Made by a program: the position numbers and the translations under genes
IMG/VR virus record: IMGVR_UViG_3300048878_000193
Span: 1-42,947 of that record
DNA from: a virus
Taxonomy: Duplodnaviria > Caudoviricetes
DNA: 42,947 nt
Direction: 5' to 3' (one strand)
Shown: positions 1-42,947 of the stretch, piece by piece
Layout of the letters: every line of letters begins with the position of its first letter
Position numbering within the stretch: the stretch's first letter is position 1
Notes under the pieces: model-generated
What the model was told of the DNA's origin: nothing
The model's database searches: none
The model's input: the letters and a program-made list of their open reading frames with translations, nothing else

Positions 1-99
1 ACGAAGTTTCCTGGTAGCTTCTCTCTGGACCCGGACTGCCTCATCGCCAGTAAAAACATCCGTCTGTTCTGTCGTGCCATCAATAGGGCGACGTGCTGC
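1..99. repeat. 99-bp overlap identical to 42739-42837 (circularity/assembly overlap)
   Basis: Direct comparison; identity ends at base 100. Confidence 0.95.
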
Positions 100-3000
100 C
101 TCAACACCACCGTCCGCAGCACGCACAGGCGGCGGGGCGGGGGTGGCGTCAAGTTCACGCAGCCTTGCCCGAAGCCGAATTAGTTCATCGGGTTCCACTG
201 AACCAGTAGGGAGAGCACTCTCAAGTTCTTCGATACGCCTTGTCACGGCCCACCATTCAGAAGAACCCCTCCCCGCAACCTCGTCCGCAGCACGCACAGG
301 CGGCGTGGCGGGGGCGGCGGGGGGTACGGGGCGTACCGATGGAGTTTCTTGGGATGTGAGCGGGATAATCTCTTCAGGAGCGCGTGATCCGGTTTGTATG
401 CGCGTCTGAACAGGGTAAATCGTAGAGTTATCAAACGCCACAACTTCCCAGATATCGCCGTCTCGGTCGATGTTTACAAATCCGTCGAACCCATCAGCCT
501 TTAACCGTGCAACATCAAAGTCCCGCGCCGCAGCATCTCGGAACGTGGCAGGGTTCTGGAAGTTGACGTATGCCTCAATCGTCCGAATAGGACCGCGACT
601 TCGGGGAAGGACATCTCCAAACTCAAAAGCCGTTCCTCGCTCTGGTGAGAAGAAAATCCCTTCTACAACATTAGCATCGCCCCCGAAATTGGCTCCAGGA
701 TCAGGGCGAAGTTGATCGACCGGGAAATCCCCTCGTGTTCCGTGGAACACGCGAAGTGGCTTACCAGCAACGTCTACAACTTGAGTTCCCTCTATTTCTC
801 CAGAAATGTTCGCAGGAACGGGGTCTGCGTTCCGTCGAGCAAATGTGAACTCGCCCGTGTCGAAGTTGAACCCACTCTTAATCGACCTGTCTCGAACGGC
901 GTTACCAGCAGCATCTACACGATAGACATTTGACCCAGCGACATGAATCCCTGGCGCAAGCGGTCCAACTTCTCTTGGATTCTCTACTGCGCTTATAAAG
1001 TCCGAAGGACTGGAATGTTCTTGAACCACATCGCTGTGACGTGGCAAACCCTCCGCAACCTCGTCCGCAGCACTCACAGGCGGCGTTACGTCGTCGATAG
1101 CCTCGCCAGCTTGGAACCGATCCCATTCGTCCTGTGTAAGACGCCGCTGCGAACCGTCGGCTTTTCGTAGAAGAATCGACCCTCCTACGCGGTCCCTACC
1201 CGTTGGCGTCTTGAGACTATCTCGAACGATTGTGACTAGCTCGCCCGGAGTAAGAGGTGCCTGATTCGGACGCTTTCGTGGTGGCAAACCTTGAAGTTCA
1301 CGAAGATTAGCCCGAGCCTGGACTAACTGCTCCCCCAGTGCACTACGTCCGGGTGCGCTTGATCCAAACCCCGAATTAGGGTGTACGGCAAAATCAGAAA
1401 TCGCTACCGAGTCGAGTTCGTCCCACCACTCGTTTCCGAGAAATGGGTCACGTTCTTGAGATCGAGCAAACGCGATGATCTTATCGTCTGACCACCCAGC
1501 GAAAATACCTCGTCGGACACTACTAGGAATATCTAAGGCTGTATCTCGTGCTGCACTAACCTCTGTCTCAAGTCGAGCGATTTCGTTTTGCTGTCGAAGG
1601 ATGTCCTGCGCTTTAGGATCATCACCAGTACGCATCAAGGTTTCGAGTTCTTCGTTAAGTCGAGAAATTTCCGCATAGTCATTGACAGATTCGGCATACT
1701 CGATGTCGTCTTGAAGATCATCTAGTTGCTTTTGAAAAGCGTCATCTAGCCCACCAGCACGCGCAACAGGAGCTACGTCGTCCGCCACCTGACCGCCTCG
1801 CTGGGCAAGTTCGGCAGCAATCGCCGCATCTTGAGTCGTCTGACCGCCAGTAGCTATGTCGTCGGCGAATCCTGTCTGACCCGGAACTACCTCACCCGCA
1901 GCGCGAGGAGCATCCCCCATGAACGACGCTTGCGCCATCCCAGGTTGTTCGGCTGTTGGCCGTGCTACATCACCAGCGATACCCTCCAAGCCGCCTTGTA
2001 CGGGACGCACAGGCGGCGTTACGTCGGGGGCGGCGGGACGTGCAGGGGGAGTGAGAATATCCCGTATTGAAGGTGCGTCGGCGGCAGCGAACGGATTTGG
2101 CGGCGGTGGGCGTGTGCCGTCATACATGAAGCCCGTGCGATCGATGATCTTGCCGAAAGTAGTGGTGTTGAATAAATCGATTGTCGGTGGGTAGTGGATG
2201 AAGTCGAGATCACCTTCGGGGGTAATCCTATCCAAATCCACGAGATGACCATCGATGTGGCTGACCCGGAACGGCTCTTCATCGATGTAGATGACTTCGC
2301 CAATCTCAAGGTCCGATGCGTCGGCGGTTCTCGACGGATTTGGATTGGTGGCTCGCCTCCCGACATAGCCACCTCCAGGCGTGACGCCGCCGCCAACTTC
2401 ATCGGCCAGGTTGAACGGGCCGGCTACTCGTGGTTGGTCTGCCGCCTGTGGGCCGACACGACGGATGGTTCCAGAGATTAAGTCTTGGTAGACACGCTCT
2501 GCTGCGTCTGGACGGTTACTGCGTAGCAGAATGTTACGAACGCCGATAGCGAAGCTGTTGACGAGATCGATTGCCCGACGGAAAGCATTACGAGATACTT
2601 CTGGGAAGGCTTCCTTGTAGAAGTCACGAAGAGCCTTGTCTGAGAGAACTTCGGCGAACCACTCGTTGAAGTTAGTAAACCTATATGTATTGCGGAGCCG
2701 TTCTGCAAGGTCTGGCGTAAGTTTCCCTCCACCCAAGCCTCTAGTGGCTAACTGGTCTTGGAATAACAGCAAGTCTCCGCCATCAGCCAAGACACGCCTG
2801 TATTGTTCCTGAAGTGCGCGGAACGCGTCATTACCGAGGAATCGCTGAATATGATGAGCGACTTCATGGATGATAAGACGATTGGGATCAACGGAATTAT
2901 CAAGTGCGCCGAGGGCTATGTTGGCAAGGCTGTCCTCAGTGTTATAAAACCCTGAGACTGTTCGACCCCCACCAGCAGGACCGAAGCTACGCACGTTCCT

Positions 3001-4530
3001 GAAAGAAAGCGCACCACCTTCAAGAACATCTTCAGGCATTGACCTTATAAACGTAATCGCTGCATCAGCAACTTCCGAATCTATACGTCCAACATTACGT
3101 TCTAACTCAATGCGTTGTACTAGAGCATCTGCGCCACGGTTGACGCTACGACCTGCTTCAAGTGCTTCTGCTGATCCCTCACCTACGCGGGGGCCACGGA
3201 ATGTCGTTTGCTCGCGTACACCTCGAACTCCTTCAGGAATGATTTCTCCACGAGGCCCAATACGTCCGATTAACGAACCACCTGATTCTGTCTCATATCG
3301 AACCCACGCCCCACGCGGCCTACCTGCCGCAAACTCTTGCATCCATCCCGGCTGCTCAGACGCAACTGCAATACGTGGATCGCTGAGATCAACGATGTCC
3401 TCTCGCCCGAGTTGCACCTCTCCTGCTCCAGGGCGCTGACGAACAGGAGATTCAGGAAGTGTGTCTAGTTGGCGAATGTCCGTGCCAGCGACGGGAGGTA
3501 TGTCGGCGGCAATATCAGCAGCAGCACGTTCACCGGCGCCAACACTTGCTCCGGGAGTACGCCTGAGAGTCTCCCGTACAGGATCAATTAGTCTTTTAAC
3601 AAAGCGACCTGTACCAACAACACCTTTGAGCCCAATACGTTCTGCGGCCGTAAGTGGAAGCAGTAGCGTTGGGTCGGTGAAGGTTTCAGCAAGCGTGAGC
3701 GTACTGAGAGATGGGCCGATGTCGGGAACGATATCGAGGCCACGGTCGGTTCCGGGCGGGTCTAGGATATTTAATGCGGCACCTGGAAGTCCCGGCAAAA
3801 GCCTCGTGAGATCACCGATGTTTACTGACGGATAGGCATCACGCGTCTCGGAAATCGCTTGACGACCTGCTTGCCACTGAGTCAATCCCTGAGCTTCAAG
3901 TTCAGCACTTCGTTCTCTTACAGCTTTAGGAGCCATACCTGCTTGCAAAGCGAGTTCGGGATTTTCTCTAGCGATTTGTTCGCCCATGCGCAAAATCGGG
4001 CCGAGACTTCCGCTCCAACCGGGCGTCCTGCCCCAGTCAGGTGCCGGTCTACCTTGAGGCGTCAGCCCCAGGAATTTCGCTACTGGACCTATGGGAATCT
4101 CCGGTAACGGTGGAATCGGGCCAGGAAATAGGTCGCGAGGATCCAGATCTTGTTGACGTTCTGATCGATAGTCCCGCTCGTCGCGCTGGCCTTCCAGGTA
4201 GGCGATGAAGTTCTCGGCCGACGCGAGTTCGTCACGCATCCCGATGTTCTCACGCTCGGCTGCGACGAACTCTTCAAGCATCTGCGTCCCACGGATATTC
4301 TCGATCTCACCGATCAATCCATCCGCCAATGACGAGAGTTGCCGGTTTTCTTCCTGAAGTTGAGTCGTGCGCGGGTCGTTACCGAATTGAGGTACAGGTG
4401 GTCGTGGGGGCGTCGAAGGTTGCCGAGGCGGTGTTGGTCCGGGACGCGGGTTCGCTATCTGGAATTGATTAGATAGCCGGTGTCTCGACTCGGTAAAGGA
4501 TCCCGCAACGGCGTCATATCCCGAAGCCAT
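1..4530 (-). CDS. Giant polyvalent (probable internal virion/ejected) protein, N-terminal part; continues across the circular junction into 42738->39220
   Basis: Hand translation shows no stop in this minus frame from ATG 4530 (MASGYDAVAG..., GAGGT RBS) to base 1. It is the same frame as ORF 39220..42867 via the 1-99 = 42739-42837 overlap. Contains HEVAH...EWFAE and VVDVAGKPLRVFHGT motifs. Missing from the ORF track because it runs off the edge. Confidence 0.9.
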   Translation of the reverse strand, partial: MASGYDAVAGSFTESRHRLSNQFQIANPRPGPTPPRQPSTPPRPPVPQFGNDPRTTQLQEENRQLSSLADGLIGEIENIRGTQMLEEFVAAERENIGMRDELASAENFIAYLEGQRDERDYRSERQQDLDPRDLFPGPIPPLPEIPIGPVAKFLGLTPQGRPAPDWGRTPGWSGSLGPILRMGEQIARENPELALQAGMAPKAVRERSAELEAQGLTQWQAGRQAISETRDAYPSVNIGDLTRLLPGLPGAALNILDPPGTDRGLDIVPDIGPSLSTLTLAETFTDPTLLLPLTAAERIGLKGVVGTGRFVKRLIDPVRETLRRTPGASVGAGERAAADIAADIPPVAGTDIRQLDTLPESPVRQRPGAGEVQLGREDIVDLSDPRIAVASEQPGWMQEFAAGRPRGAWVRYETESGGSLIGRIGPRGEIIPEGVRGVREQTTFRGPRVGEGSAEALEAGRSVNRGADALVQRIELERNVGRIDSEVADAAITFIRSMPEDVLEGGALSFRNVRSFGPAGGGRTVSGFYNTEDSLANIALGALDNSVDPNRLIIHEVAHHIQRFLGNDAFRALQEQYRRVLADGGDLLLFQDQLATRGLGGGKLTPDLAERLRNTYRFTNFNEWFAEVLSDKALRDFYKEAFPEVSRNAFRRAIDLVNSFAIGVRNILLRSNRPDAAERVYQDLISGTIRRVGPQAADQPRVAGPFNLADEVGGGVTPGGGYVGRRATNPNPSRTADASDLEIGEVIYIDEEPFRVSHIDGHLVDLDRITPEGDLDFIHYPPTIDLFNTTTFGKIIDRTGFMYDGTRPPPPNPFAAADAPSIRDILTPPARPAAPDVTPPVRPVQGGLEGIAGDVARPTAEQPGMAQASFMGDAPRAAGEVVPGQTGFADDIATGGQTTQDAAIAAELAQRGGQVADDVAPVARAGGLDDAFQKQLDDLQDDIEYAESVNDYAEISRLNEELETLMRTGDDPKAQDILRQQNEIARLETEVSAARDTALDIPSSVRRGIFAGWSDDKIIAFARSQERDPFLGNEWWDELDSVAISDFAVHPNSGFGSSAPGRSALGEQLVQARANLRELQGLPPRKRPNQAPLTPGELVTIVRDSLKTPTGRDRVGGSILLRKADGSQRRLTQDEWDRFQAGEAIDDVTPPVSAADEVAEGLPRHSDVVQEHSSPSDFISAVENPREVGPLAPGIHVAGSNVYRVDAAGNAVRDRSIKSGFNFDTGEFTFARRNADPVPANISGEIEGTQVVDVAGKPLRVFHGTRGDFPVDQLRPDPGANFGGDANVVEGIFFSPERGTAFEFGDVLPRSRGPIRTIEAYVNFQNPATFRDAAARDFDVARLKADGFDGFVNIDRDGDIWEVVAFDNSTIYPVQTRIQTGSRAPEEIIPLTSQETPSVRPVPPAAPATPPVRAADEVAGRGSSEWWAVTRRIEELESALPTGSVEPDELIRLRARLRELDATPAPPPVRAADGGVEAARRPIDGTTEQTDVFTGDEAVRVQREATRKLR
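279..377. repeat. 99-bp overlap identical to 42849-42947
   Basis: Direct comparison with the contig end. Confidence 0.95.
415..780 (-). other. ADP-ribosyltransferase-like domain (ART-PolyVal type) within giant protein
   Basis: VVDVAGKPLRVFHGT...GIFFSP...AYVNFQNP...LKADGFDG...WEVVAF matches the remembered ART-PolyVal pattern (HGT, aromatic-FS/T, terminal E). Confidence 0.8.
2470..3060 (-). other. Zincin-like metallopeptidase domain within giant protein (boundaries approximate)
   Basis: GFYN...IIHEVAHH (HExxH at 2854-2868) followed by NEWFAE (EWFAE at 2650-2664). Confidence 0.75.
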
Positions 4531-9703: not shown

Positions 9704-10082
9704 TGGATCTCCTTTTTCCTTGCCGCAGCCAGCAAACTCACTCTATCACGAGCGCCTTTTTACGCGAGAAAGCGGCCCTTTAACGCCGATCGTCCTGCAC
9801 CGGATTACAGCTACAAGCCGCTTTCTCTACCCAGAGGGGGGCCAAATAAAGTACCAGACTATCACCATACCCCCCCCTGCACAGATCGACGGCGGCGGAG
9901 CATACTAGAACTCTCTCCATATACCCCCCCCGCGCAGCTGGCTTTGCCGTCTGGGACGATTCCCACTCCCGACGGTGCCGCGTGTCTCAAGTGGTAGGTC
10001 GCCCAGCGTTCAGACGCGGCCAATAAATAACGCTCGGGTCGGTGCTACGGCTAACCACGCCCAAACTATCAACTAACGAGGC

Positions 10083-10364
10083 TTAGGATACGGCTTCGGA
10101 CGTGGCTTCTTCTTCAAATACATCGGAATCCCCCTTCCCACATAAAACACAATCAATACGCCGAACACGCTGCTGCTTCTTACTTTGCATCCCCGGATAA
10201 TGACCCTCACAAACCCCAAAACACCCACAAACATGACAAATCTCTCGCGTAGGACGCCAACCACAAAAACAACCAAGCTCACCCTCAATATCTACACGTA
10301 AAGTAAAACCCGTATGGCAACGGGGACACAAATCCAAATTTACCATCACGATTTTTCTACCCAC
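10083..10364 (-). CDS. Small Zn-finger-like hypothetical protein
   Basis: 93 aa with CxxC pairs (CPRC, CHVC, CVLC); lies in a compositionally skewed region, so it may be spurious. Confidence 0.5.
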   Translation of the reverse strand: MGRKIVMVNLDLCPRCHTGFTLRVDIEGELGCFCGWRPTREICHVCGCFGVCEGHYPGMQSKKQQRVRRIDCVLCGKGDSDVFEEEATSEAVS

Positions 10365-11425: not shown

Positions 11426-11959
11426 ATGACAACCGCAACGACCGAACACCGCGTATATATCGCGAGTCTCGCGGACTATAACGCGGGCCGCTTGCATGGC
11501 CGATGGATTGACGCCACGCTAGGCGCGGAACACATCCAGACCGAAACCGCCGCCATGCTTGCCGAGTCCCGCGAACCGTTCGCCGAGGAATGGGCAATTC
11601 ACGACTATGAGGGATTCGAGGGGTGGAAGCTCGGCGAGTGGGAATCATTCGACACCGTGGCCGAAGTCGCCGAAGCGATGGAAGCCGCCGACGATCCCGC
11701 CGCGGTGGGCGCATGGATCGCGAACCAACCGGAATACAACGTTCAGAACCTTGACGGATTCGCGGACGAGTACCGCGGGGAATGGTCGAGCGGCGCGGAG
11801 TACGCCGAGCAGTTTTACGAGGAAACGGTAGGCGCGGAAGCGCTGGGACCGCTGGCCCTGTACATCGATTGGGCGCACGTATGGCGCGATAAGTTCGAGT
11901 ACGCCAACACATGGAGCGCGAACAGCGCCGGCGGTATCTACGTTTTCGAGGGATCCTAG
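11426..11959 (+). CDS. ardA: ArdA antirestriction protein (DNA mimic)
   Basis: VYIASLADYNAGRLHGRWID...EEWAIHDYEGF...GEWES; highly acidic. Confidence 0.93.
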   Translation: MTTATTEHRVYIASLADYNAGRLHGRWIDATLGAEHIQTETAAMLAESREPFAEEWAIHDYEGFEGWKLGEWESFDTVAEVAEAMEAADDPAAVGAWIANQPEYNVQNLDGFADEYRGEWSSGAEYAEQFYEETVGAEALGPLALYIDWAHVWRDKFEYANTWSANSAGGIYVFEGS

Positions 11960-22200: not shown

Positions 22201-24225
22201 ATGAAAATCACCCGCATCCGGGCGCACAACCTACGGCAACTCAGGGACGTGGACGTAACAATCCCTGACGGACTCAGCCTAGTTGTGGGACCGAACGACA
22301 CCGGTAAGACGACCCTGCTCTGCATCGCCTCACGCTGGGCGCTCTGGGGCGCTCACGCGGTGCCGTCACAAAACAGACAGGTCACATACGGCGAGTCCGA
22401 TATGGAAGTCGATGCTTACTTCCTGCTGAACGGACTGCACTACCACGTCAAGCGCCGACTACATCTGACCGACAGTGGCCGACCAACCGTGGCCCTGCAC
22501 TTTGAGCAGGTTGGAGAAAATCTCACTCAAGGCACGATCCGAGAAACACAAGCCAGCATCGACAGCCTCATCGGGACATACGAGACGTTCCGCATGACGG
22601 CCTACGTCGATCAGGTCGAGGGGCCAGGTGACTTTCTCAAGCGCACACCCGCAGATCAGCGCGAGGTGCTGCGTGAACTACTAGCCCTGGGCGACTGGGA
22701 CGCGTGGCACGAGGATGCGAAAGAGAACGCTGCCGCACTCGGGCTGGCCGTCAGCATGGGCGAGTCACGCCTTGAGGTAATGCGCGCCGATATCGAGAAC
22801 ATCCCAGGCGCACGCAGAAATCTCGCGACGGCTGAAGTGTCCGTTACCAACGCAGAAACGGCTCTCCGTGTCTCTGAGGCCGCTAAAACAAAGGCTGACA
22901 GGGCAGTTGACGAGCTCTTCCGACAGCACCTCGCACATGAACAGGCGATTCGCTCCATCGAGCAGGTTGGTGCGCGGCTTGTCACGCTGGACGAGTTGCA
23001 TCGTAAAGCGAACAACCTTGTGGCCGCGGACAACGCGCTGATTGAAGCCAACGACGAGATTAAGCGTGCGTGGGAAGAGCAGGAGGAAGAGCAGGATGAA
23101 TGGGAGGTTGAACGAGATAACGTAGCCTTCCGTAACCAACAAATCCAGAAGCGCAACCGTGAAGCTCGCGACGATTACAGCAAGCGTGCTAACGCCGTAT
23201 CCACCGAAGTCTCGCGAATCCAGAAAGAACATTCCGGCCGTGAGGCAGTACGCAAGGCCGCGGCGAAGTGTCCCGAGTGTGGTCAACCGATCAACGCGCC
23301 TGACGCGCTCGCCCCGATCATGCCCGAACCGGCCAAGCTCGCCGACACTGAGGAACTGCTACCGGTCCCGCCGCAGCCGACCATCATGGGCGACATCATC
23401 ACCCTGCACGACCAGTGGCTACGCGTAGGCGAGCGTTCGCAGGAACACGCGGAGGATCTGCACAAGGTTCTGAGCGAGGTAGAAGAGGCAACCGCTGACC
23501 GGCAGGTACTTGAGGACGAAATGCCAGAGGACACCGACCCTGACGTGGCAGAACAGGGGCGAGGATTCGCACGAGAACTTGCACGGAAACAGATATGGCA
23601 AAGGGAAGATCTCAACGATGCGAACGTCGAAAAGGGCAAGGCAGGGTCGGTTCTGGCGCAGTTACTCAAGATCGAAGAGGACACCGGCTACCTAGCAGAC
23701 GAGATCGAACAGGATCGGGAGGCGCTACGCCTTGCCGAACTCCTGGCCGAAGCGTTCTCCCCCGGTGGCACACGTCAACTCATGCTGGATCAGGCACTCC
23801 ACGAGCTTGAGGCGGCGGCGAACATCGCTCTCGCTACTCTCATGCCTGGGTTCTCCGTACACAGTGGTACGCAATCCGAGACAGGCGTTGAAACTCTTGA
23901 GTTTATGATCCGCACACCTGCGGGTCTGCTGACGTGGGCTGATCTGGGCGGAGCTGCATCGGTGGCCGTGGCCCTTGCAGTACGCATCGGGCTAATGGAT
24001 TTACTCGCGAAGTATCGAGGCGTGCGCTATGAGCACATGATCCTCGATGAAGCGGACTCGTGGCTCGTGGGCGAGCGTCAAGACGGCTACGTGCGGTTGC
24101 TTCAACGACTCGTTGAGTCTCGGGGTATGACCGTCACGGCTATTTCACACATCGCAAGCGTTCAGGAGACGATCGGACAACAGATCGTGCTCACCCCGGG
24201 CGCAGAGGGAACGGTGGTCGTGTGA
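22201..24225 (+). CDS. sbcC: SbcC/Rad50-like SMC ATPase
   Basis: GPNDTGKTT, coiled coils, CPECGQ Zn hook, ILDEAD, ISH. Confidence 0.92.
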   Translation: MKITRIRAHNLRQLRDVDVTIPDGLSLVVGPNDTGKTTLLCIASRWALWGAHAVPSQNRQVTYGESDMEVDAYFLLNGLHYHVKRRLHLTDSGRPTVALHFEQVGENLTQGTIRETQASIDSLIGTYETFRMTAYVDQVEGPGDFLKRTPADQREVLRELLALGDWDAWHEDAKENAAALGLAVSMGESRLEVMRADIENIPGARRNLATAEVSVTNAETALRVSEAAKTKADRAVDELFRQHLAHEQAIRSIEQVGARLVTLDELHRKANNLVAADNALIEANDEIKRAWEEQEEEQDEWEVERDNVAFRNQQIQKRNREARDDYSKRANAVSTEVSRIQKEHSGREAVRKAAAKCPECGQPINAPDALAPIMPEPAKLADTEELLPVPPQPTIMGDIITLHDQWLRVGERSQEHAEDLHKVLSEVEEATADRQVLEDEMPEDTDPDVAEQGRGFARELARKQIWQREDLNDANVEKGKAGSVLAQLLKIEEDTGYLADEIEQDREALRLAELLAEAFSPGGTRQLMLDQALHELEAAANIALATLMPGFSVHSGTQSETGVETLEFMIRTPAGLLTWADLGGAASVAVALAVRIGLMDLLAKYRGVRYEHMILDEADSWLVGERQDGYVRLLQRLVESRGMTVTAISHIASVQETIGQQIVLTPGAEGTVVV

Positions 24226-24629
24226 CACATGACCACGAGTTCCGAGGGTATCCAACCTGCTACTGCGGCGAAGCTAATCCTGAGTGGGTCGAAGAGTTAA
24301 CAGCAGATCTTGACAGTATCAGCCTTACGAATGTTCCAGAGACGTACGCTGCCGGCCTACGGGACACGTCAAGAATTGCGTTTCACTCAACGGATCGGAA
24401 GTCAATGCGTGCCAACGTCTACCGGTTCTTTCTTGAGTGCGGGTACACCGGCGCAACTGCGGATGAGGTTGTCGTGAAATTCGATCCATCAATGACGCTC
24501 ACCACCTCCTATGCTCCCCGAGTAACCGAGTTAATGCGTGAGGGATTATTGATACGAACGGAGCGGCGACGAAAGACAACAAAGGGCCGACCTGCAATCG
24601 TTTACCGAGCTATCACAAAGGAACAATGA
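24222..24629 (+). CDS. Winged-HTH protein
   Basis: GATADEV...PRVTELMREGLL...RRKT..GRPAIVY. Confidence 0.75.
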   Translation: MTHDHEFRGYPTCYCGEANPEWVEELTADLDSISLTNVPETYAAGLRDTSRIAFHSTDRKSMRANVYRFFLECGYTGATADEVVVKFDPSMTLTTSYAPRVTELMREGLLIRTERRRKTTKGRPAIVYRAITKEQ

Positions 24630-25834
24630 TGAAAGACCACTACCGAATCCTGATCGTCGCAGACACGCACATCGGCGCCGAGCGCCGGCCCTGGCTGCGA
24701 AAGGTAGGCGTGACACCCGAGCAGTACGACGCGCCGCTGCGTGAGGCGGTCAAATGGTTCAGGGACAACGCTGCCGATATGTTGATCGTCGCTGGCGATG
24801 TGTTCGATCAGCGCAACCCGCTCCCGGGCGACTACGCACGAGCGCAGAAGATATACCCAGCAAACACGGTCTACGTCGCCGGCAACCACGACATTTCAGC
24901 GCAGGGCGACGTCAACGCGCTCTGGTGGAGCGACGGATACGCCATGAGCGGTCGGCCGAGTTTGATTGAGCCGTACGGAACGGCGAGGAACCCAGGCGTG
25001 CAGATCGTGTGCCTACCGTGGCCGCGACCGTCCGATTACAACGCTGACAAGATTACCGGATGGACGATCAGGGAAGAGATCGCCCGAACCAGACAAGCGA
25101 TTCTTGAAGATTTGAATGACATCGCTGTTAACGACATCGACCAGACACGCCCTGCGATCCTCGTAGGCCACGCGATGGTGAGCTATGGCAACACGACACC
25201 GGACGACCCCGGCCTCATGCTGGGCAAGGATGTGGTGCTGCCGTACGAGTCGCTGACGAGTCTCCCGAACATCGGTGGCGTCTACCTGGGCCACGTCCAC
25301 GACCCGAGCTCTCCCGCTTACGTGGGCAGCACGCAGCCGACGGACTGGGGCGAGGCCGATCAGGTCAAGAGCTTCACGGTGGTGGACATCACAAAGGTGG
25401 ACCCTGACAGCCTGTTCATTCAGTCTGCGGCAGATCTAATACAAGAAGTTGGAGAGCCAATCATCGTCAACGGTTGGCGATACATCACCCGCCAGATCCC
25501 GTACACAACGTCGCTCAAACTGGCAACTGTCAGTAATGAGGACTACGAATTGGCCGGCGACTACGATGGCGTGCGTTTGACGTGGACGGTGCGTGAGGGC
25601 GACGACCCTGAACAACTCGCTATCGCCGAACGAGCTCTGCGGGATCAGCACCCCTACGTCGAGGTGATCGTGGAGCACGAGGTCAAGCGTGCGGCAAGGG
25701 TCGAGACGATCGAGCCACTAGCGAAGATGAGCCCTATGGACGCGCTTGGCGTATGGCTTGAGCAACGCGAGACACCCGGCGACGACCACAGGGCTGTCGA
25801 AATGATGGCGCACGAGATCATCAGCGATCAATAA
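24626..25834 (+). CDS. sbcD: SbcD/Mre11-like metallophosphoesterase nuclease
   Basis: ADTH, AGDVFD, GNHD, LVGH, LGHVH, YVGS. Confidence 0.92.
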   Translation: MMKDHYRILIVADTHIGAERRPWLRKVGVTPEQYDAPLREAVKWFRDNAADMLIVAGDVFDQRNPLPGDYARAQKIYPANTVYVAGNHDISAQGDVNALWWSDGYAMSGRPSLIEPYGTARNPGVQIVCLPWPRPSDYNADKITGWTIREEIARTRQAILEDLNDIAVNDIDQTRPAILVGHAMVSYGNTTPDDPGLMLGKDVVLPYESLTSLPNIGGVYLGHVHDPSSPAYVGSTQPTDWGEADQVKSFTVVDITKVDPDSLFIQSAADLIQEVGEPIIVNGWRYITRQIPYTTSLKLATVSNEDYELAGDYDGVRLTWTVREGDDPEQLAIAERALRDQHPYVEVIVEHEVKRAARVETIEPLAKMSPMDALGVWLEQRETPGDDHRAVEMMAHEIISDQ

Positions 25835-26417: not shown

Positions 26418-26744
26418 CTATTCGAGTGTGAACACCACGTCAGCCGAGTCACCGTCTGTATCTGCGTCCATATAAATATCAGCTACGTTAATGGCGCCGG
26501 TGTCGAAGTCGATCTTTTTTGCTACCCCTTTGGGCATCCTGTCGCTATACGCACGAGTCATATTACTGCGCCCCCAATACATAGCCGTGCCTGTATTGTC
26601 GGACCTGGGAGTGATCTCGATTGTGGTGATTCGGGAAGTCGCACCGCTCGCACGAACGAACGAATTGGCCGCGAGGCTGGCGGAGAGCTGTTGCGGCGTG
26701 CCGGCCGATGCAATCACGATGCTCATTACGTCGAAGTTAGCCAT
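26418..26744 (-). CDS. Hypothetical beta-rich protein, last gene of the late arm
   Basis: 108 aa directly after tatC. Confidence 0.7.
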   Translation of the reverse strand: MANFDVMSIVIASAGTPQQLSASLAANSFVRASGATSRITTIEITPRSDNTGTAMYWGRSNMTRAYSDRMPKGVAKKIDFDTGAINVADIYMDADTDGDSADVVFTLE

Positions 26745-26747
26745 TAC

Positions 26748-27698
26748 TTAGTCCTTCCTAGAGAGCTTCGCCGCCCTCGCAATCAGCGCGAGTAACCTAC
26801 TGTACGCCTTGTCCAGCTTTGTTCTGGCCCTCGATGGTGTGCCGGTAGACAGGTCGCCGTCCCAGACGAACACAAAGCACAGAGCAACCACGAAAAGCAC
26901 CCCGACTAAGAGTGACGGTACAAGTACCAGAACGACGGCGGCTCGCCGCAAGATTCCGACCAGCACCGCTTTGATTCTACGGATCACAAGTCTCCCCTTT
27001 CCAGGCTGGGCCAGCCATGCAAGCAGCAACCCAACCTCGTACAAAATTATGATGGGTATGGCGACCATCAATTGGTTCACGATATCAAACGTCGGAGTAA
27101 TTATTGCAGAGAGAATAATGGCTACGGGCGGGACGAACTTCCGCACTCGTCTGAACCGCTGGTACGAAATGAGTCGCAGCTTCGCCAGTAGGAACATCAA
27201 GAGCGGCAACTCGAAGATCACTCCGAGCCAGAATAAAAGGACGATAGCCAGACCCAGATACTCAGATATCCTGATGGTGGGTACGGCGATGCCCTCCCCA
27301 AAGTGCAGCAGAAATGCAATCCCCACCGGCAGCATCACGTAATATGCGAACGACACCCCAGCGAGGTAGCACAGGAGGATCGCTGGCAGGAAAAGGGCAA
27401 CAAGCCGTCGCTCGTGCCGGGAGATTAACGGGCTCACCAGGTAGAAAATAGTGAGTACGAGAACGGGGATCGCGAGGACCACGCCGCCCGTTAGCGACAG
27501 GCGTATGGTCACAGACAGAATCTCAGTCGGCGAGGTATATATGGGCAGCCCATAATGGGGAGAGAGCTGGCCGTCAGCCGGGGCGATTAACCAACCGAAA
27601 ATCACGACGCGGAAATACCACGTAAGGCCAGCGCCGACCCCGAACGCTAAGAATGTCCCGAGAAGTCCGAACCGGACTCTACGGGCGAACCGCCTCAT
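26748..27698 (-). CDS. tatC: TatC (twin-arginine translocase) homolog, divergent
   Basis: YTSPTE, P...ERR, FAYYVMLP, GVIFELP, AIITPTFD..NQ..VAIPIIILYE; six TatC-like TM helices plus an extra C-terminal hydrophobic segment. Confidence 0.92.
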   Translation of the reverse strand: MRRFARRVRFGLLGTFLAFGVGAGLTWYFRVVIFGWLIAPADGQLSPHYGLPIYTSPTEILSVTIRLSLTGGVVLAIPVLVLTIFYLVSPLISRHERRLVALFLPAILLCYLAGVSFAYYVMLPVGIAFLLHFGEGIAVPTIRISEYLGLAIVLLFWLGVIFELPLLMFLLAKLRLISYQRFRRVRKFVPPVAIILSAIITPTFDIVNQLMVAIPIIILYEVGLLLAWLAQPGKGRLVIRRIKAVLVGILRRAAVVLVLVPSLLVGVLFVVALCFVFVWDGDLSTGTPSRARTKLDKAYSRLLALIARAAKLSRKD

Positions 27699-27700
27699 CT

Positions 27701-27868
27701 TTAGGAGGCTGCTTTAGCCTTCTTTGCGACCGTCTCTACGGCAGCAGCCACCGGAGAGTTACTGGAGCTACGAGCGCGGTTTGTCGCGACCCGCCAGAGC
27801 CAACTTCCACCGCCCAGCATGATGACAATGGCACCAACAGCGATTGCACCGAGCATCCATTCATTCAT
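27701..27868 (-). CDS. 55-aa single-TM protein, TatA-like topology (below track cutoff)
   Basis: MNEWMLGAIAVGAIVIMLGGGSWLWRVATNRARSSSNSPVAAAVETVAKKAKAAS; AGGAG RBS; ends 2 bp before tatC. Confidence 0.7.
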   Translation of the reverse strand: MNEWMLGAIAVGAIVIMLGGGSWLWRVATNRARSSSNSPVAAAVETVAKKAKAAS

Positions 27869-27886
27869 ATCTGTCTCTCCTGAAAC

Positions 27887-28150
27887 TTATTTCCGTTCAC
27901 GTTTCGTGTTGGTGATGGAGTCTAACTGATCCTCAATAGCAACAGAACCTCGCTGGAACTTTCGCACGAGTGAGGTGAACTTGCCCATTCCCGACTGCGT
28001 TGTAACCGCCGTCACCGTGCTGACAAAAAATATGGGTCGGATAACACTCATCACGCCACTGGATACCCCGCCCAAGAGGAACTCTAAGATACGGACTACG
28101 ACGATCCCACCCAGTACGCCCCCAAGCAAGGGGCCAAGCAGCCATCCCAT
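27887..28150 (-). CDS. Small membrane protein, possibly TatA/B-like or holin-like
   Basis: Gly-rich hydrophobic N-terminus, then amphipathic GKFTSLVRKFQRG and a charged tail; AAGGAG RBS. Confidence 0.7.
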   Translation of the reverse strand: MGWLLGPLLGGVLGGIVVVRILEFLLGGVSSGVMSVIRPIFFVSTVTAVTTQSGMGKFTSLVRKFQRGSVAIEDQLDSITNTKRERK

Positions 28151-28153
28151 AAG

Positions 28154-28393
28154 TTACTCCTTCGGCGGTCGCTTCTCTTTGTCTCCAGCGAGGGCGCCAA
28201 AAAATCCTTCGAGCGCAGCGAATCCACGGCTCGTAACGGTCGCTATCCCTGCGGCCCTGGCGTTGTCCACAATACCGATAAACCGATCCTTCACATCGTT
28301 GAGGGACATGAGGGCTTCCTCTGCTACCTCAACGATCGCTTCCTTTTCCTCGACCTTCTCTTCCACCGGCTCCGGTGTCTTGTTCTCGCTCAC
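28154..28393 (-). CDS. Hypothetical protein
   Basis: Acidic N-terminus, amphipathic C-terminus, operon packing. Confidence 0.7.
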   Translation of the reverse strand: MSENKTPEPVEEKVEEKEAIVEVAEEALMSLNDVKDRFIGIVDNARAAGIATVTSRGFAALEGFFGALAGDKEKRPPKE

Positions 28394-28405: not shown

Positions 28406-28609
28406 TTACGACGTTGTAAAACTGTCCGCAGTCTCTGGCTCAAAATCAGACGAGTCCTTCTGGCAGTCACATGCAGGAGCAGCTTCCGCAGCCGCTTCCA
28501 GTTCGTCTACCCGGCGGCTCAATGCCGCTGCGGATACAGCCTGTGCGAACGCAGGACTCGCGCTTAGTACGGTATTGATGTCTGCCATTTCGATTGCTAC
28601 TTCTGCCAT
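28406..28609 (-). CDS. Small helical hypothetical protein
   Basis: AGGAG RBS, operon packing. Confidence 0.7.
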   Translation of the reverse strand: MAEVAIEMADINTVLSASPAFAQAVSAAALSRRVDELEAAAEAAPACDCQKDSSDFEPETADSFTTS

Positions 28610-39219: not shown

Positions 39220-42200
39220 TTAGACCTGCACCGCGACGTTCGCAGCATTGGTCTGGATTTGTCTCAATGTTTGCTTGAGCCAAGTCTGATAGTTGGGCTG
39301 TCCGAACGGGAATTGTTCATGGATAGCCCGTAGTTTGGTTTCCTGTTCTGGCAATATTTCACCCCCCTCACGCCAGAAGCTATTAAGCGTACGCAAATCA
39401 GATCCACTCAGTTGCGCGCTGACCTGTTCCCATCGGTCCACATTGTTGACGTTCTGCGCCACGGGGATATCTCCTTCAGCGGGTAGTAATGACCCTCTTA
39501 GTTTGATTGGAGGAATTGACGGGGCTGGCCCTGTGTCGAATGAAGGTGGTGCCGGGATTGTGCTGGGGTCCCTGATCGTATCAAATCCAGTATCGCCCTC
39601 TTGGTCACTAGGATCTAAGTCGATTGATCCATCTACCCATCGATCAGTAAGAGCTTTTCTAAAACTCTCCATCCGAGTGCTGTCTGCTTCAAGCAAGTTA
39701 AGTAGCCCAGCGCCGATAATCAATTCTTTAGCTCTACTTATCCCGGCGGATGATTGCAAGGTGCTGACTCGACCGATTATAAACAAATGTGCATCCACGT
39801 CTGGATGCCCTTCTCTGTATTCAGTCCTAGCCTTTCCTGGCTCAACGGCTTCATAGCCCACTATCAGGGACAGGGATGCTTCCTTGATTGGTGCCAGCGC
39901 CTCCGTAAGCTCAACCGCCCGAATACTCTCGGCTGACCGGTCCTCAAACTCGCTGAAGTCGATGTCGAGATCTTCCTGTTGCTCGACAACCTCATCCACC
40001 ATCAAGGCTCTTTGAGCGATAGTCGTCATTAGCGCATTGAGCTCGTCCAACTTGTCCCGTTTTTCTTGTGGAGACAGTGATCGAGAATCCCAGATATCTC
40101 GCTGTGCCTTACGGATACCCGACATCTGGGCAGCGATCGTGCGATAGGCACGGGCCTGTTTAGAGAAAAAGTCGTTGCTGCTGTTGTCGTAGAAGAATAG
40201 GGCTTCAGGATGATCGGCCAGATACTTCTTGAACTTAGCCTCTTCGCCTTTTTGCAGGTACTCTTTGAGCGCTTTTTCAACACCTTCGGATTTCTGAAAC
40301 GCATTATAGAAATCATCAACAGACTTGCTTGATGATCCTGTCGGATCCCGGGCGATGAATGACTTGAGCACCGGATAATCAGCCGCCGTCCGAGAAGGAT
40401 CTGGTGCCGGATTCGTAATCCCTGTTCCCTCTAAGACCTCATCGAGAATCTGGACAGCGTAGTTTCCAAGACTGGCTGTGTAGCCGCTAATGATGTTGTC
40501 GATCTTTGCTGGGGAGAAGTCCAATGCTCCACCAAGTAGCTTTGCCGACTCTGACGTACTACCCGAGTATTGCATTTCGTCAGGGAAGTCCTCTCGACCT
40601 CGTGAAACGATTGGAGTGCCACGGAAGAAACTGTGATTAGCCTGTGTCTCAATCACTGGAAGCAGAGCTGTCGGTACATATCCAGGAGTTCCCATTTCGA
40701 GCGCACTCCCAAACACACCCTTTAGGATCTCAGGATCTTTGGTGTCCAAATATTCTAAGAACCGTTCCGGGACTGATCCAAATAAGATGCCAAGTGTGAA
40801 AGGTTTGGGGATACGAACGATCGGGCCATTTGGAGGAATAATGACCCAGAACAAATCTTTTTGCCATTGAGGGAGTTCCTGATATCGCGGATTATCGCGA
40901 TTGACGTAGTACAAAGCGATCGACGGAAGTGTGATCCCGGTGAATACCTTGAACGACGTTTTCACAGGATTAGTCTTGAACGACGTAATCATGCGGTCCC
41001 AGTCACGGATGTTTGCGTTAAAGAACGCAATCAAGCGATTCATAGTCCGAGCAGACGTTCCCATTTTTGCGAAGTCCAATGTCACCTCGCGTGATGAAAA
41101 TGCGGCGTCCATAGGTGAGGCGCCACGCCGAACACCACGTACAAACTCTCCCATGCGAGTACCTTTTTCGGTGAACTCACTAAGGATCTGAAGGTACTCA
41201 AGCGGACTTTTCTTGTAGTCCGTGAACTTGTGCTCGTCTACGACCTGCTGAAAGCTCTTCTGAAGGTACTCACGGTCCATCGAAACCAACGTCGATCGCT
41301 CACCGCCAGATAGTTTCCATAATGTGTACTCATCTGTCTTACCGAGTACCTGGGCTACCCCTCTGACCCAATCGACCCCCGGAAGAAATCCATATTTGGA
41401 ATACGTGTAAGCAGTTAGTTGGTCCCTGATCGGGTTACGGATCATAAAGTCCGGGCTGAGAGTTGCGCCGGCACGCAGGATACGAGCAGGAAGTCCTAAC
41501 CATTTAATCGCCATGCCTACGGATTCGGTATCCATAGACAGAAGTCCACGGTATAGATCAGGGTCTACCTCATAGAAAGTCTTTTTCCCCTTGTCCATAA
41601 CGGTGACAACATTTTCACTCGTGTACTGAGAGGGCCGGAATATATCAAAGATCTGCTCTGCTTCTCGTTCGGTTAATCCCTCAAGTGAAATTCCTAACTC
41701 TTTAGCTGTCGTTCGTGCTACGAGAGCGGTTTTCTGCGGAACCTTGCGGAAGAGTGGTTCCAACGCCGGATCACGAGCAACCATATTCGCCATGAGTCGG
41801 CCAACTTGATTCCGGTCGGCCGCCTCTACGATCAAGTAAGTGTTTTTGACAATGCTCTCTAGGGGATTGACAATTTCCCGCTCAGACCCCTTGATGCGCC
41901 GAATAGGTGATCGGACATCCGCCATTTTCTTGCCCATGAACCCACCTGCTTGGAGTTCTTCAAAGACGCGCAGGAACGGAACATAGTCTTTCGTTTTCTT
42001 TAACTTCGCAACGAGGTCGGGTGCCAGAAGCCCCATTTCCTCACCGTAATCAAGCAGCTCGTTCTGATACTTGTAAACAGCGGCAGCGGTCTTTCTGAAC
42101 TCTGGATATTTTGCTTCGAGTTCGCGTATTGCCTGTCTCGCATCTTCTGGCGGAATCCCAGTCAGGATCTTGCGACGGTTAAGATCGACAGCGCGTCTTG

Positions 42201-42947
42201 CTGTCACATATGTAGCAAAGTCACGCCACTCTTCTGGCTTACTTACCGGTTTTAAGATTTCTTCAAGACTTGGACCGCGGAGGTTTGGAACCGCACCTTT
42301 CGGACCTTGTTTCCAATACTTCGCTCCAAACGTGCCTTCCTCAATCATCACCCTCGCTTTGCCGCCAGTTCCGGGCAACATCCGAGCCCATAAATACGGG
42401 TTCTCTTCCATAGAAAGTTGCATACCGCCCTTTTTGGCAGCGCGTACAAACTCGTCGAGAGGGTGCAGCTCATCGACCATCTGACGAAGAAAACTGTGCC
42501 AGCCCGAACGTAACCGCTCTACAATATTCAACCCACCATCTTCGAGAGAAATCCGGTCGAATACTCGCCCTGTTGCTGAACCGCCCGGTGGCGGTGGCGC
42601 CGGGGGTGACGGACCATCTGGCGGTCGTACTGGCGGTCGTCCACCCGCATTTATCTCGGCTACATCAGCCTGATAGGTAATCTCAGCCAAATCTGTGTCG
42701 GGTGGTAGATCTCCACGGGCAGCGGCCTCTTCAGCCTCACGAAGTTTCCTGGTAGCTTCTCTCTGGACCCGGACTGCCTCATCGCCAGTAAAAACATCCG
42801 TCTGTTCTGTCGTGCCATCAATAGGGCGACGTGCTGCTTCTGCACCGGCCTCGTCCGCAGCACGCACAGGCGGCGTGGCGGGGGCGGCGGGGGGTACGGG
42901 GCGTACCGATGGAGTTTCTTGGGATGTGAGCGGGATAATCTCTTCAG
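39220..42947 (-). CDS. Giant polyvalent protein, C-terminal part with LPD38-like domain (~40350-40910)
   Basis: Frame is open to the window end; YQELPQWQKDLFW...RIPKPF.LG..FG..PER...N.SFF.G.PIV...TSE.AK...SPAKID matches remembered LPD38. Confidence 0.9.
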   Translation of the reverse strand, partial: EEIIPLTSQETPSVRPVPPAAPATPPVRAADEAGAEAARRPIDGTTEQTDVFTGDEAVRVQREATRKLREAEEAAARGDLPPDTDLAEITYQADVAEINAGGRPPVRPPDGPSPPAPPPPGGSATGRVFDRISLEDGGLNIVERLRSGWHSFLRQMVDELHPLDEFVRAAKKGGMQLSMEENPYLWARMLPGTGGKARVMIEEGTFGAKYWKQGPKGAVPNLRGPSLEEILKPVSKPEEWRDFATYVTARRAVDLNRRKILTGIPPEDARQAIRELEAKYPEFRKTAAAVYKYQNELLDYGEEMGLLAPDLVAKLKKTKDYVPFLRVFEELQAGGFMGKKMADVRSPIRRIKGSEREIVNPLESIVKNTYLIVEAADRNQVGRLMANMVARDPALEPLFRKVPQKTALVARTTAKELGISLEGLTEREAEQIFDIFRPSQYTSENVVTVMDKGKKTFYEVDPDLYRGLLSMDTESVGMAIKWLGLPARILRAGATLSPDFMIRNPIRDQLTAYTYSKYGFLPGVDWVRGVAQVLGKTDEYTLWKLSGGERSTLVSMDREYLQKSFQQVVDEHKFTDYKKSPLEYLQILSEFTEKGTRMGEFVRGVRRGASPMDAAFSSREVTLDFAKMGTSARTMNRLIAFFNANIRDWDRMITSFKTNPVKTSFKVFTGITLPSIALYYVNRDNPRYQELPQWQKDLFWVIIPPNGPIVRIPKPFTLGILFGSVPERFLEYLDTKDPEILKGVFGSALEMGTPGYVPTALLPVIETQANHSFFRGTPIVSRGREDFPDEMQYSGSTSESAKLLGGALDFSPAKIDNIISGYTASLGNYAVQILDEVLEGTGITNPAPDPSRTAADYPVLKSFIARDPTGSSSKSVDDFYNAFQKSEGVEKALKEYLQKGEEAKFKKYLADHPEALFFYDNSSNDFFSKQARAYRTIAAQMSGIRKAQRDIWDSRSLSPQEKRDKLDELNALMTTIAQRALMVDEVVEQQEDLDIDFSEFEDRSAESIRAVELTEALAPIKEASLSLIVGYEAVEPGKARTEYREGHPDVDAHLFIIGRVSTLQSSAGISRAKELIIGAGLLNLLEADSTRMESFRKALTDRWVDGSIDLDPSDQEGDTGFDTIRDPSTIPAPPSFDTGPAPSIPPIKLRGSLLPAEGDIPVAQNVNNVDRWEQVSAQLSGSDLRTLNSFWREGGEILPEQETKLRAIHEQFPFGQPNYQTWLKQTLRQIQTNAANVAVQV

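Follow-up and report, generated by a model that had tools for sequence, protein, structure and literature searches.

Why would a tailed phage keep a gene for TatC, a component of the Tat system for the export of folded proteins, at the very end of its late operon, that is, where a lysis cassette is expected? The question was raised by a first-pass annotation of the stretch of DNA analysed here (the window, 42,947 nucleotides, whose minus strand carries terminase, major capsid and tail-fibre genes), which proposed that the phage might have co-opted Tat parts for membrane disruption or egress, for the export of a folded phage protein, or for the poisoning of the host Tat system. The window is a virus record in full, and its CheckV completeness of 100% agrees with the apparently complete genome of that annotation, although the record is linear and its ends break a giant head gene. 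This gene, encoding a polyvalent protein (ART-PolyVal, LPD38), occupies positions 1-4530 and 39220-42867 on the minus strand and is split within an internal repeat. Circular permutation, with a small gap, is probable for this genome. The plus strand also carries an ArdA anti-restriction gene (11426-11959) and SbcCD-like genes (22201-25834), common to the tatC-less relative G309. The ORFs at the end of the late operon are the following:

26418..26744, minus strand: 108-aa ORF, within the limits of the first-pass module, not a cassette member
26748..27698, minus strand: TatC-derived membrane protein of 316 aa (PF00902, TIGR00945, TatC fold), last gene of the cassette
27701..27868, minus strand: A55, 55 aa, with an N-terminal Glu, a single TM helix, a Gly run and a short basic tail
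27887..28150, minus strand: B87, 87 aa, with two hydrophobic segments and a basic amphipathic helix
28154..28393, minus strand: C79, 79 aa, with an acidic low-complexity N-terminus, two conserved helices and no TM segment, first cassette gene
28406..28609, minus strand: 67-aa ORF upstream of the cassette, not a cassette member

The 55-, 87- and 79-aa ORFs are co-oriented with tatC, separated by gaps of 2-18 nt and preceded by purine-rich sites, and both small membrane ORFs of the first-pass annotation (the single-TM one and that with the basic amphipathic helix) are present as described. The limits drawn for the module, 26418..28393, hold in part: tatC and these two ORFs belong to it, as does the acidic 79-aa ORF, but the 108-aa ORF is excluded, since its 12 homologues sit upstream among tail genes. 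The 67-aa ORF was also considered as a member and rejected, its position being variable and the ORF being present in tatC-less phages too. The possibility of a chimeric host insert was checked through assemblies of three runs (X2-X4) other than the possible source run, and no chimera was seen: identical overlapping contigs join the cassette to the RuvC gene and further contigs extend the link from the cassette to the tail genes, all at even depth, the full stretch being in no single contig. In a further run (X5), one contig joins 26227 to 28394, skipping the cassette.

Is this arrangement a peculiarity of one genome? Across 89 phage-type loci, which are partly redundant and were picked by their TatC match, the 55-aa family was found in 74 of the 80 loci with enough upstream DNA (five of the six misses carry a divergent single-TM ORF there), the 87-aa family in 68/68 and the 79-aa family in 57/58. 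The order 79-87-55-tatC is kept in 57 of the 58 informative loci (46 distinct TatCs), so the same synteny recurs in relatives, though some close relatives lack tatC; it is also found in L001, where visual inspection suggests tape-measure-like tail genes. In pairwise comparisons with nine relatives overall, dN/dS was 0.12-0.23 for tatC (six pairs, one more being saturated), which gives no sign of relaxed selection, 0.11-0.39 for the 55-aa gene, 0.04-0.17 for the 87-aa gene and 0.10-0.48 for the 79-aa gene. The four-gene cassette is real, conserved in a widespread phage family and under purifying selection. Promoter and terminator scans stayed at chance level, no gene for a folded cargo travels with the cassette in the examined loci, and the 633-aa tail protein had no match in a viral scan.

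The last gene of the cassette is, as first described, a clear TatC homolog, co-oriented and tightly packed at the late-operon end, which is borne out by the gene gaps, by its matches to PF00902 (E 2e-43) and TIGR00945 (132.9 bits for a cut-off of 132.7, under which three relatives score), and by an AlphaFold model (pLDDT 71) whose 7 Foldseek matches at E<=0.001 are all TatC structures. Among 8000 scored candidates, 393 are TatC relatives at E<=1e-30, cellular ones possibly included, and the window TatC shares 36-44% identity with the best Chloroflexota TatCs. The TatC phylogeny that the first-pass annotation had suggested, a quick tree of 89 subsampled rows, groups the phage TatCs in a single clade (SH-aLRT 100, stem 0.84) that sits inside a group of small-genome Chloroflexota TatCs with moderate support (SH-aLRT 83-89, the stem being long). 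GenBank phage records gave 14 weak TatC matches of about 30% identity, the annotated ones being ordinary tatC genes on bacterial-looking contigs.

The distinctive features of these proteins lie in the residues that were lost, kept and added. Positions were mapped by alignment to the Aquifex structure and followed through 75 phage and 108 cellular rows aligned together, with what we take to be the corresponding E. coli TatC residue numbering. According to passages of PMC13323110, the signal peptide contacts H12, E15, F94, Y100 and E103 of TatC, and the polar-cluster site for TatA/B consists of M205, T208 and Q215. H12 is found in 107/107 cellular vs 2/51 phage rows, E15 in 97/107 vs 0/51 (with Arg in 42 phage rows), F94 in 107/108 vs 4/73 and E103 in 102/108 vs 17/73; the four are all intact in 96/107 cellular rows and in 0/51 phage rows (the 24 without the N-terminus being left out of this test), and the window TatC retains only E103 among them. 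The G98 equivalent is mostly Leu in phage TatCs, and the net charge of the N-terminal site moves from +0.3 to +4.9, making the cargo site basic. The TM5/6 docking site for TatA/B is retained (T208 in 73/75 phage rows, P209 in 75/75 and Q215 in 64/75), together with D211 (75/75), G166 (75/75) and E170 (61/75). The C-terminal tail has a median of 58 aa and a charge of +10 in phages, compared with 7 aa and +1 in cellular TatCs; it contains an extra hydrophobic helix in 34 of 75 phage TatCs, and its hydrophobic moment exceeds the 95th percentile of its own shuffles, as in an amphipathic segment, in 34 of 68. The loss of F94/E103 is treated as an inactive site in the consulted parts of PMC13673990, where haloarchaeal TatCt is the only such case named and the second TatCs of Chloroflexota and Bacillota are said to retain the cargo site. 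As the cargo residues have been lost and the others kept, the phage TatC is selected for a role other than twin-arginine cargo binding, and the export of such a cargo, one of the options initially considered, is disfavoured by the disappearance of the binding site. Taken alone, the phage TatC is a new form within its family.

The small proteins resemble Tat components to a lesser extent. The 55-aa protein shares with TatA/TatB/TatE (PF02416) an N-terminal Glu, one TM helix and a Gly hinge, some members even starting like TatA (L012, L008, L010, L169), and the 87-aa protein shares the basic amphipathic helix. Against this, neither PF02416 nor the TIGR TatA/B profiles matched any of 34 members of the 55-aa family or 28 of the 87-aa family, while a host control matched, and hhalign comparisons with TatA/TatB profiles (from 36 TatA-sized and 82 TatB-sized proteins of cellular, mostly Chloroflexota, loci) gave 29% and 5.5% for the former and 2-14% for the latter, which has two hydrophobic segments. 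Therefore, the initial description of the small ORFs as Tat-like stands for their architecture and not for TatA/B homology, although a remote TatA/B descent of the 55-aa ORF is possible. The spacing from Glu to Gly is 16 in 50 of 60 55-aa proteins, three residues more than the 13 of all 115 parsed host proteins, and the amphipathic helix of TatA with its Phe motif is missing in 60/60. In what bioRxiv 10.1101/2021.05.26.445883 reports in part, a longer TatA helix lowers activity and a shorter one harms membrane integrity; since the helix of the 55-aa protein is longer and shortening is what harms membranes, a TatA-style thinning by this protein is unlikely, and the weakening of membranes by TatA oligomers, brought up in the first-pass annotation, does not transfer to the phage's own small proteins. 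The 55-aa protein, which resembles TatA only in outline, is instead a candidate for docking onto the phage TatC; the predicted complex of the two scored 0.00, which is uninformative in either direction. One of 34 members of its family matched the holin profile PF07332 at noise level (E 0.046), and in L143 the gene is tandemly duplicated (494-601 and 614-760).

The 87-aa protein is a candidate holin-like effector, its family having no holin family match. This family is closed, with 125 clusters at 50% identity, all of 36-103 aa, and its alignment varies too much to allow a pattern scan; in G308, the 87-aa gene is divergent and was recognised by eye and at E 0.05. One subclade has eight loci (L142:418-689, L148:5205-5476, L150, L153, L159, L162, L164 and L167) in which the gene is split; in each of the eight, codon 28-29 carries a heptamer of the form X XXY YYZ and the conserved second half lies in the -1 frame, which suggests two products from one gene; the heptamer occurs within codons 18-45 in 0/54 intact genes. 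A programmed -1 frameshift, giving a 49-aa TM-plus-amphipathic form and the full form, is thus probable in these loci. In L154 and L301, the gene is split by +1, with no heptamer. Finally, the 79-aa protein, with a median charge of -8, is a candidate cytoplasmic regulator. That it might be the N-terminus of TatC split off was rejected (0.2%), and a charge-swapped signal within it is a speculation that its composition invites.

What, then, is the position occupied by this cassette? It follows the tail genes at the late-operon end, and, in 34 of 42 loci, the longest ORF downstream of it is encoded by the other strand. No endolysin, holin or spanin had been recognised in the window, and scans of its 65 ORFs (52 plus 13 more) returned no lysis family either. 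The same result was obtained for 142 ORFs of at least 95 aa from the near-complete, tatC-bearing genomes G303, G305 and G307 (PHROGs, 118 of them also with Pfam; G304, G306 and G308 were not among the genomes scanned), for 145 ORFs of the tatC-less G309-G312, and for the prophage contig of G598, the scanned ORFs of relatives being those of at least about 90-95 aa. These scans have a limited sensitivity for lysis genes, given that most structural genes of these phages also have no profile match, and divergent enzymes may escape. Regarding membrane proteins, 18 window ORFs have a TM-like segment, of which three belong to the cassette, 14 are opposite to or inside other genes and one is ambiguous: a hydrophobic ORF of 71 aa (10073-10288, minus) on the late strand near the terminase genes, with no family match, which may be a gene or noise. 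Save for this ORF, the cassette holds the only clear membrane genes of the window. In one subclade (eight loci: L207:12244-12807 on the plus strand, L146, L155-L158, L165 and L168), a VTT/DedA-family membrane gene is convergent with tatC.

Relatives that lack tatC show what else the slot can hold. The cassette is present in one of five long terminase relatives, and the other four have no tatC; three of the latter (G310, G311 and G312) have an unrelated membrane cassette behind the last tail gene, in which a protein of 310-450 aa, hydrophobic and basic in its N-terminal part, is accompanied by two small ORFs, one with a single TM segment and the other hydrophobic:

L307:1800-2901, strand not given: alternative cassette in the slot of a tatC-less relative
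L308:12165-13796, strand not given: alternative cassette in the slot of a tatC-less relative
L311:13803-15897, strand not given: alternative cassette in the slot of a tatC-less relative

This alternative cassette is absent from all tatC loci examined, that is, the two never occur together. Its small ORFs have weak holin matches (phrog_785 at E 0.004 and 0.033, phrog_689 at E 0.009 and PF05106 at E 0.015), all under the curated cut-offs, and its large protein, with 1664 relatives among 8000 scored, has no family name; this second cassette is a candidate lysis module in its own right. Homology of the phage TatC tail to this large protein was considered and rejected (0.4%). The slot of G309, the closest tatC-less relative (terminase identity 50%, genome 90% complete), holds neither cassette and, together with the contig that skips the cassette, this indicates that closely related phages may not need it or may have it at another site, and disfavours an essential role.

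The host is most probably a wall-less member of the Dehalococcoidia. This rests on the TatC tree, on the missing FtsW/RodA and PBP transpeptidase, on a related prophage (although that link comes from a phage lacking the cassette) and on reported peptidoglycan loss. FtsW/RodA was not found in 8/9 genomes nearest in the TatC tree, G111 being the one that has it, and another genome of the nearest group (G035) has 28 reductive-dehalogenase matches in 1.4 Mb; so many of these enzymes in a small genome are what we take to be the Dehalococcoides pattern. The best cellular TatC match among 301 Chloroflexota genomes is in G001, a bin that also contains a contig with a phage-type cassette; nonetheless, binning is weak host evidence, because another cassette contig (L013) sits in a Planctomycete bin. 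One of 401 genomes in the class of G001 (G598) has an integrated prophage with integrase and host flanks (C13, about 5400-48600; L316-L318), whose capsid and terminase are 52% and 39% identical to those of the window and which has no cassette; it also encodes an MqsR-type toxin and ArdC. Its late operon ends in an 87-aa single-TM, coiled-coil-looking ORF (L316:13681-13944, minus). The PBP transpeptidase was found in 1/61 genomes of the order of G001 and 1/28 of that of G598, vs 10/14 controls (the genomes may be incomplete), and was not found in the genome of G598 itself. The loss of peptidoglycan in Dehalococcoidales and SAR202 is described in passages of PMC10284905 and PMC11994032. The tatC-bearing G305 has NeuB, cytidylyltransferase, epimerase and sialyltransferase-like genes (L210:5866-8957), which would fit a host with a sialylated S-layer.

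We consider that the cassette, built around a cargo-blind TatC, has an even chance of being an endolysin-free lysis device for this probably wall-less, Dehalococcoidia-type host. Late in infection, the phage TatC would assemble, with no need of a substrate, as a membrane-thinning scaffold; the retained TM5/6 site would receive the 55-aa protein (or the host TatA/B); the breach of the bilayer, once thinned, would fall to the 87-aa protein and the TatC tail, and its timing to the acidic 79-aa protein together with the voltage-linked D211; and, in a cell devoid of peptidoglycan, a membrane breach could suffice for release. The proposal draws on the Tat literature: in simulation, TatBC reduces the thickness of bilayers from 38 to 26 A (PMC13323110), Tat can assemble without a substrate even with substrate binding blocked (PMC10092561), and, in a current model, TM5/6 together with D211 contributes in a voltage-linked manner to a transient disruption of the membrane (PMC13673990). 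Of the options initially offered, the co-option of TatC by a phage is supported, and that for disruption or egress gains from the slot and from the host. The broader version, in which phages of wall-less Dehalococcoidia/SAR202 turned the host TatC, with three new partners, into a machine that ruptures membranes without regard to cargo, is timed by voltage and, in one lineage, is tuned by frameshifting, is conceivable but somewhat short of probable. Four genes look excessive for lysis, given that the slot of the G598 prophage seems to be taken by one small gene.

Other explanations deserve to be weighed against the lysis device. The loss of the cargo site with the docking site retained is also the pattern expected of a dominant negative, so that the phage TatC might sabotage or retune the host Tat by titrating its TatA/B or by joining mixed trimers with its TatC, the long-helix 55-aa protein being a dead TatA mimic and the export of folded redox proteins being shut late in infection. 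Haloarchaeal TatCt sets a precedent for a cargo-blind TatC in mixed complexes (PMC13673990, in the part consulted), and a TatA of altered length can be inactive or dominant negative (bioRxiv 10.1101/2021.05.26.445883, likewise). Nevertheless, we regard this as rather unlikely: it leaves unexplained the fixed late position in the virion operon, the swap with a holin-like cassette, the added amphipathic tail and the very lysis of these phages, and, for inhibition, a small peptide would cost less than a conserved protein of 316 aa. The retained mechanical core (equivalents of G166, E170, T208, P209, D211 and Q215) could alternatively serve a private translocase, in which TatC and the 55- and 87-aa proteins export a phage protein (an S-layer-opening factor, for instance, or the 79-aa protein) by means of a non-arginine, perhaps acidic, signal. 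The basic N-terminal site and the acidic, co-conserved 79-aa protein would suit such a system, but the F94 pocket has gone as well as the charges, the cassette has neither a bona fide TatA/B nor an accompanying folded cargo gene, and an RR-type signal is borne by no real gene of the window (the sole match being a shadow ORF), which makes it quite improbable.

A comparably low probability corresponds to an accessory set of membrane genes that would exclude superinfecting phages or remodel the surface and would not be needed for release. This reading would agree with the close relatives devoid of the cassette, with the contig that joins across it and with the other envelope genes of relatives (VTT/DedA and the sialic-acid-type genes mentioned above), whereas the tight packing at the late-operon end and the absence of a promoter-like site of its own upstream (a weak test) speak against it, and it would leave the window without any other clear membrane gene. 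The remaining reading, namely that tatC is an ordinary auxiliary gene enhancing export by the host, or else a piece of host DNA or a chimera of the assembly, can claim a TIGR00945 cut-off that is barely passed; a cargo site intact in no phage row, a single phage clade with a long stem, dN/dS values of 0.04-0.48 over four genes, flanks without host genes and the contigs of three runs in which the cassette is joined to RuvC and tail genes make it extremely unlikely.

How does the cassette compare with known systems? With the TatC of TatABC, the phage protein shares the family, the six-helix fold, the TM5/6 polar-cluster site and the equivalents of E170 and D211, and it differs in the cargo residues and the basic amphipathic tail described above and in having no recognisable tatA or tatB adjacent. 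Haloarchaeal TatCt is likewise a conserved TatC despite the loss of F94/E103 but, as far as the consulted part of PMC13673990 goes, it is a cellular fusion subunit with 14 TM segments, partnered by a functional TatCo, unlike the single phage TatC with three novel partners. A different kind of comparison is that with lysis genes. Holin-endolysin(-spanin) cassettes are found at the late-operon end and include small membrane proteins. The phage cassette has the same position, small membrane proteins, a swap with holin-like genes in relatives and possibly two products from one gene, whereas no endolysin or spanin and no holin match above noise were found, and its core is a captured transporter subunit. 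Since neither the TatA/B-family partner of a Tat translocase nor the peptidoglycan hydrolase of a holin-endolysin system was found, the cassette is best seen as a new kind of system with a predicted function. A literature search covering few subscription papers found no report of a phage tatC clade, and the phage passages of a Tat review do not deal with phage tatC.

We know of no answer to how tailed phages leave bacteria without peptidoglycan, and cells of the SAR202 type abound in the dark ocean. The cassette and its exchangeable alternative are testable candidates for phage release from wall-less cells and, if the lysis reading is true, they would reveal a new exit route for phages, that is, lysis without an endolysin, as well as a natural uncoupling of the “membrane disruption” step of Tat from transport. 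For the TatC family, the phage clade represents a natural separation-of-function variant over hundreds of sequences, in which the cargo site has gone and the docking site and D211 are retained. It could thereby directly address an open point of the Tat mechanism, namely whether TatC complexes thin or rupture membranes without a substrate.
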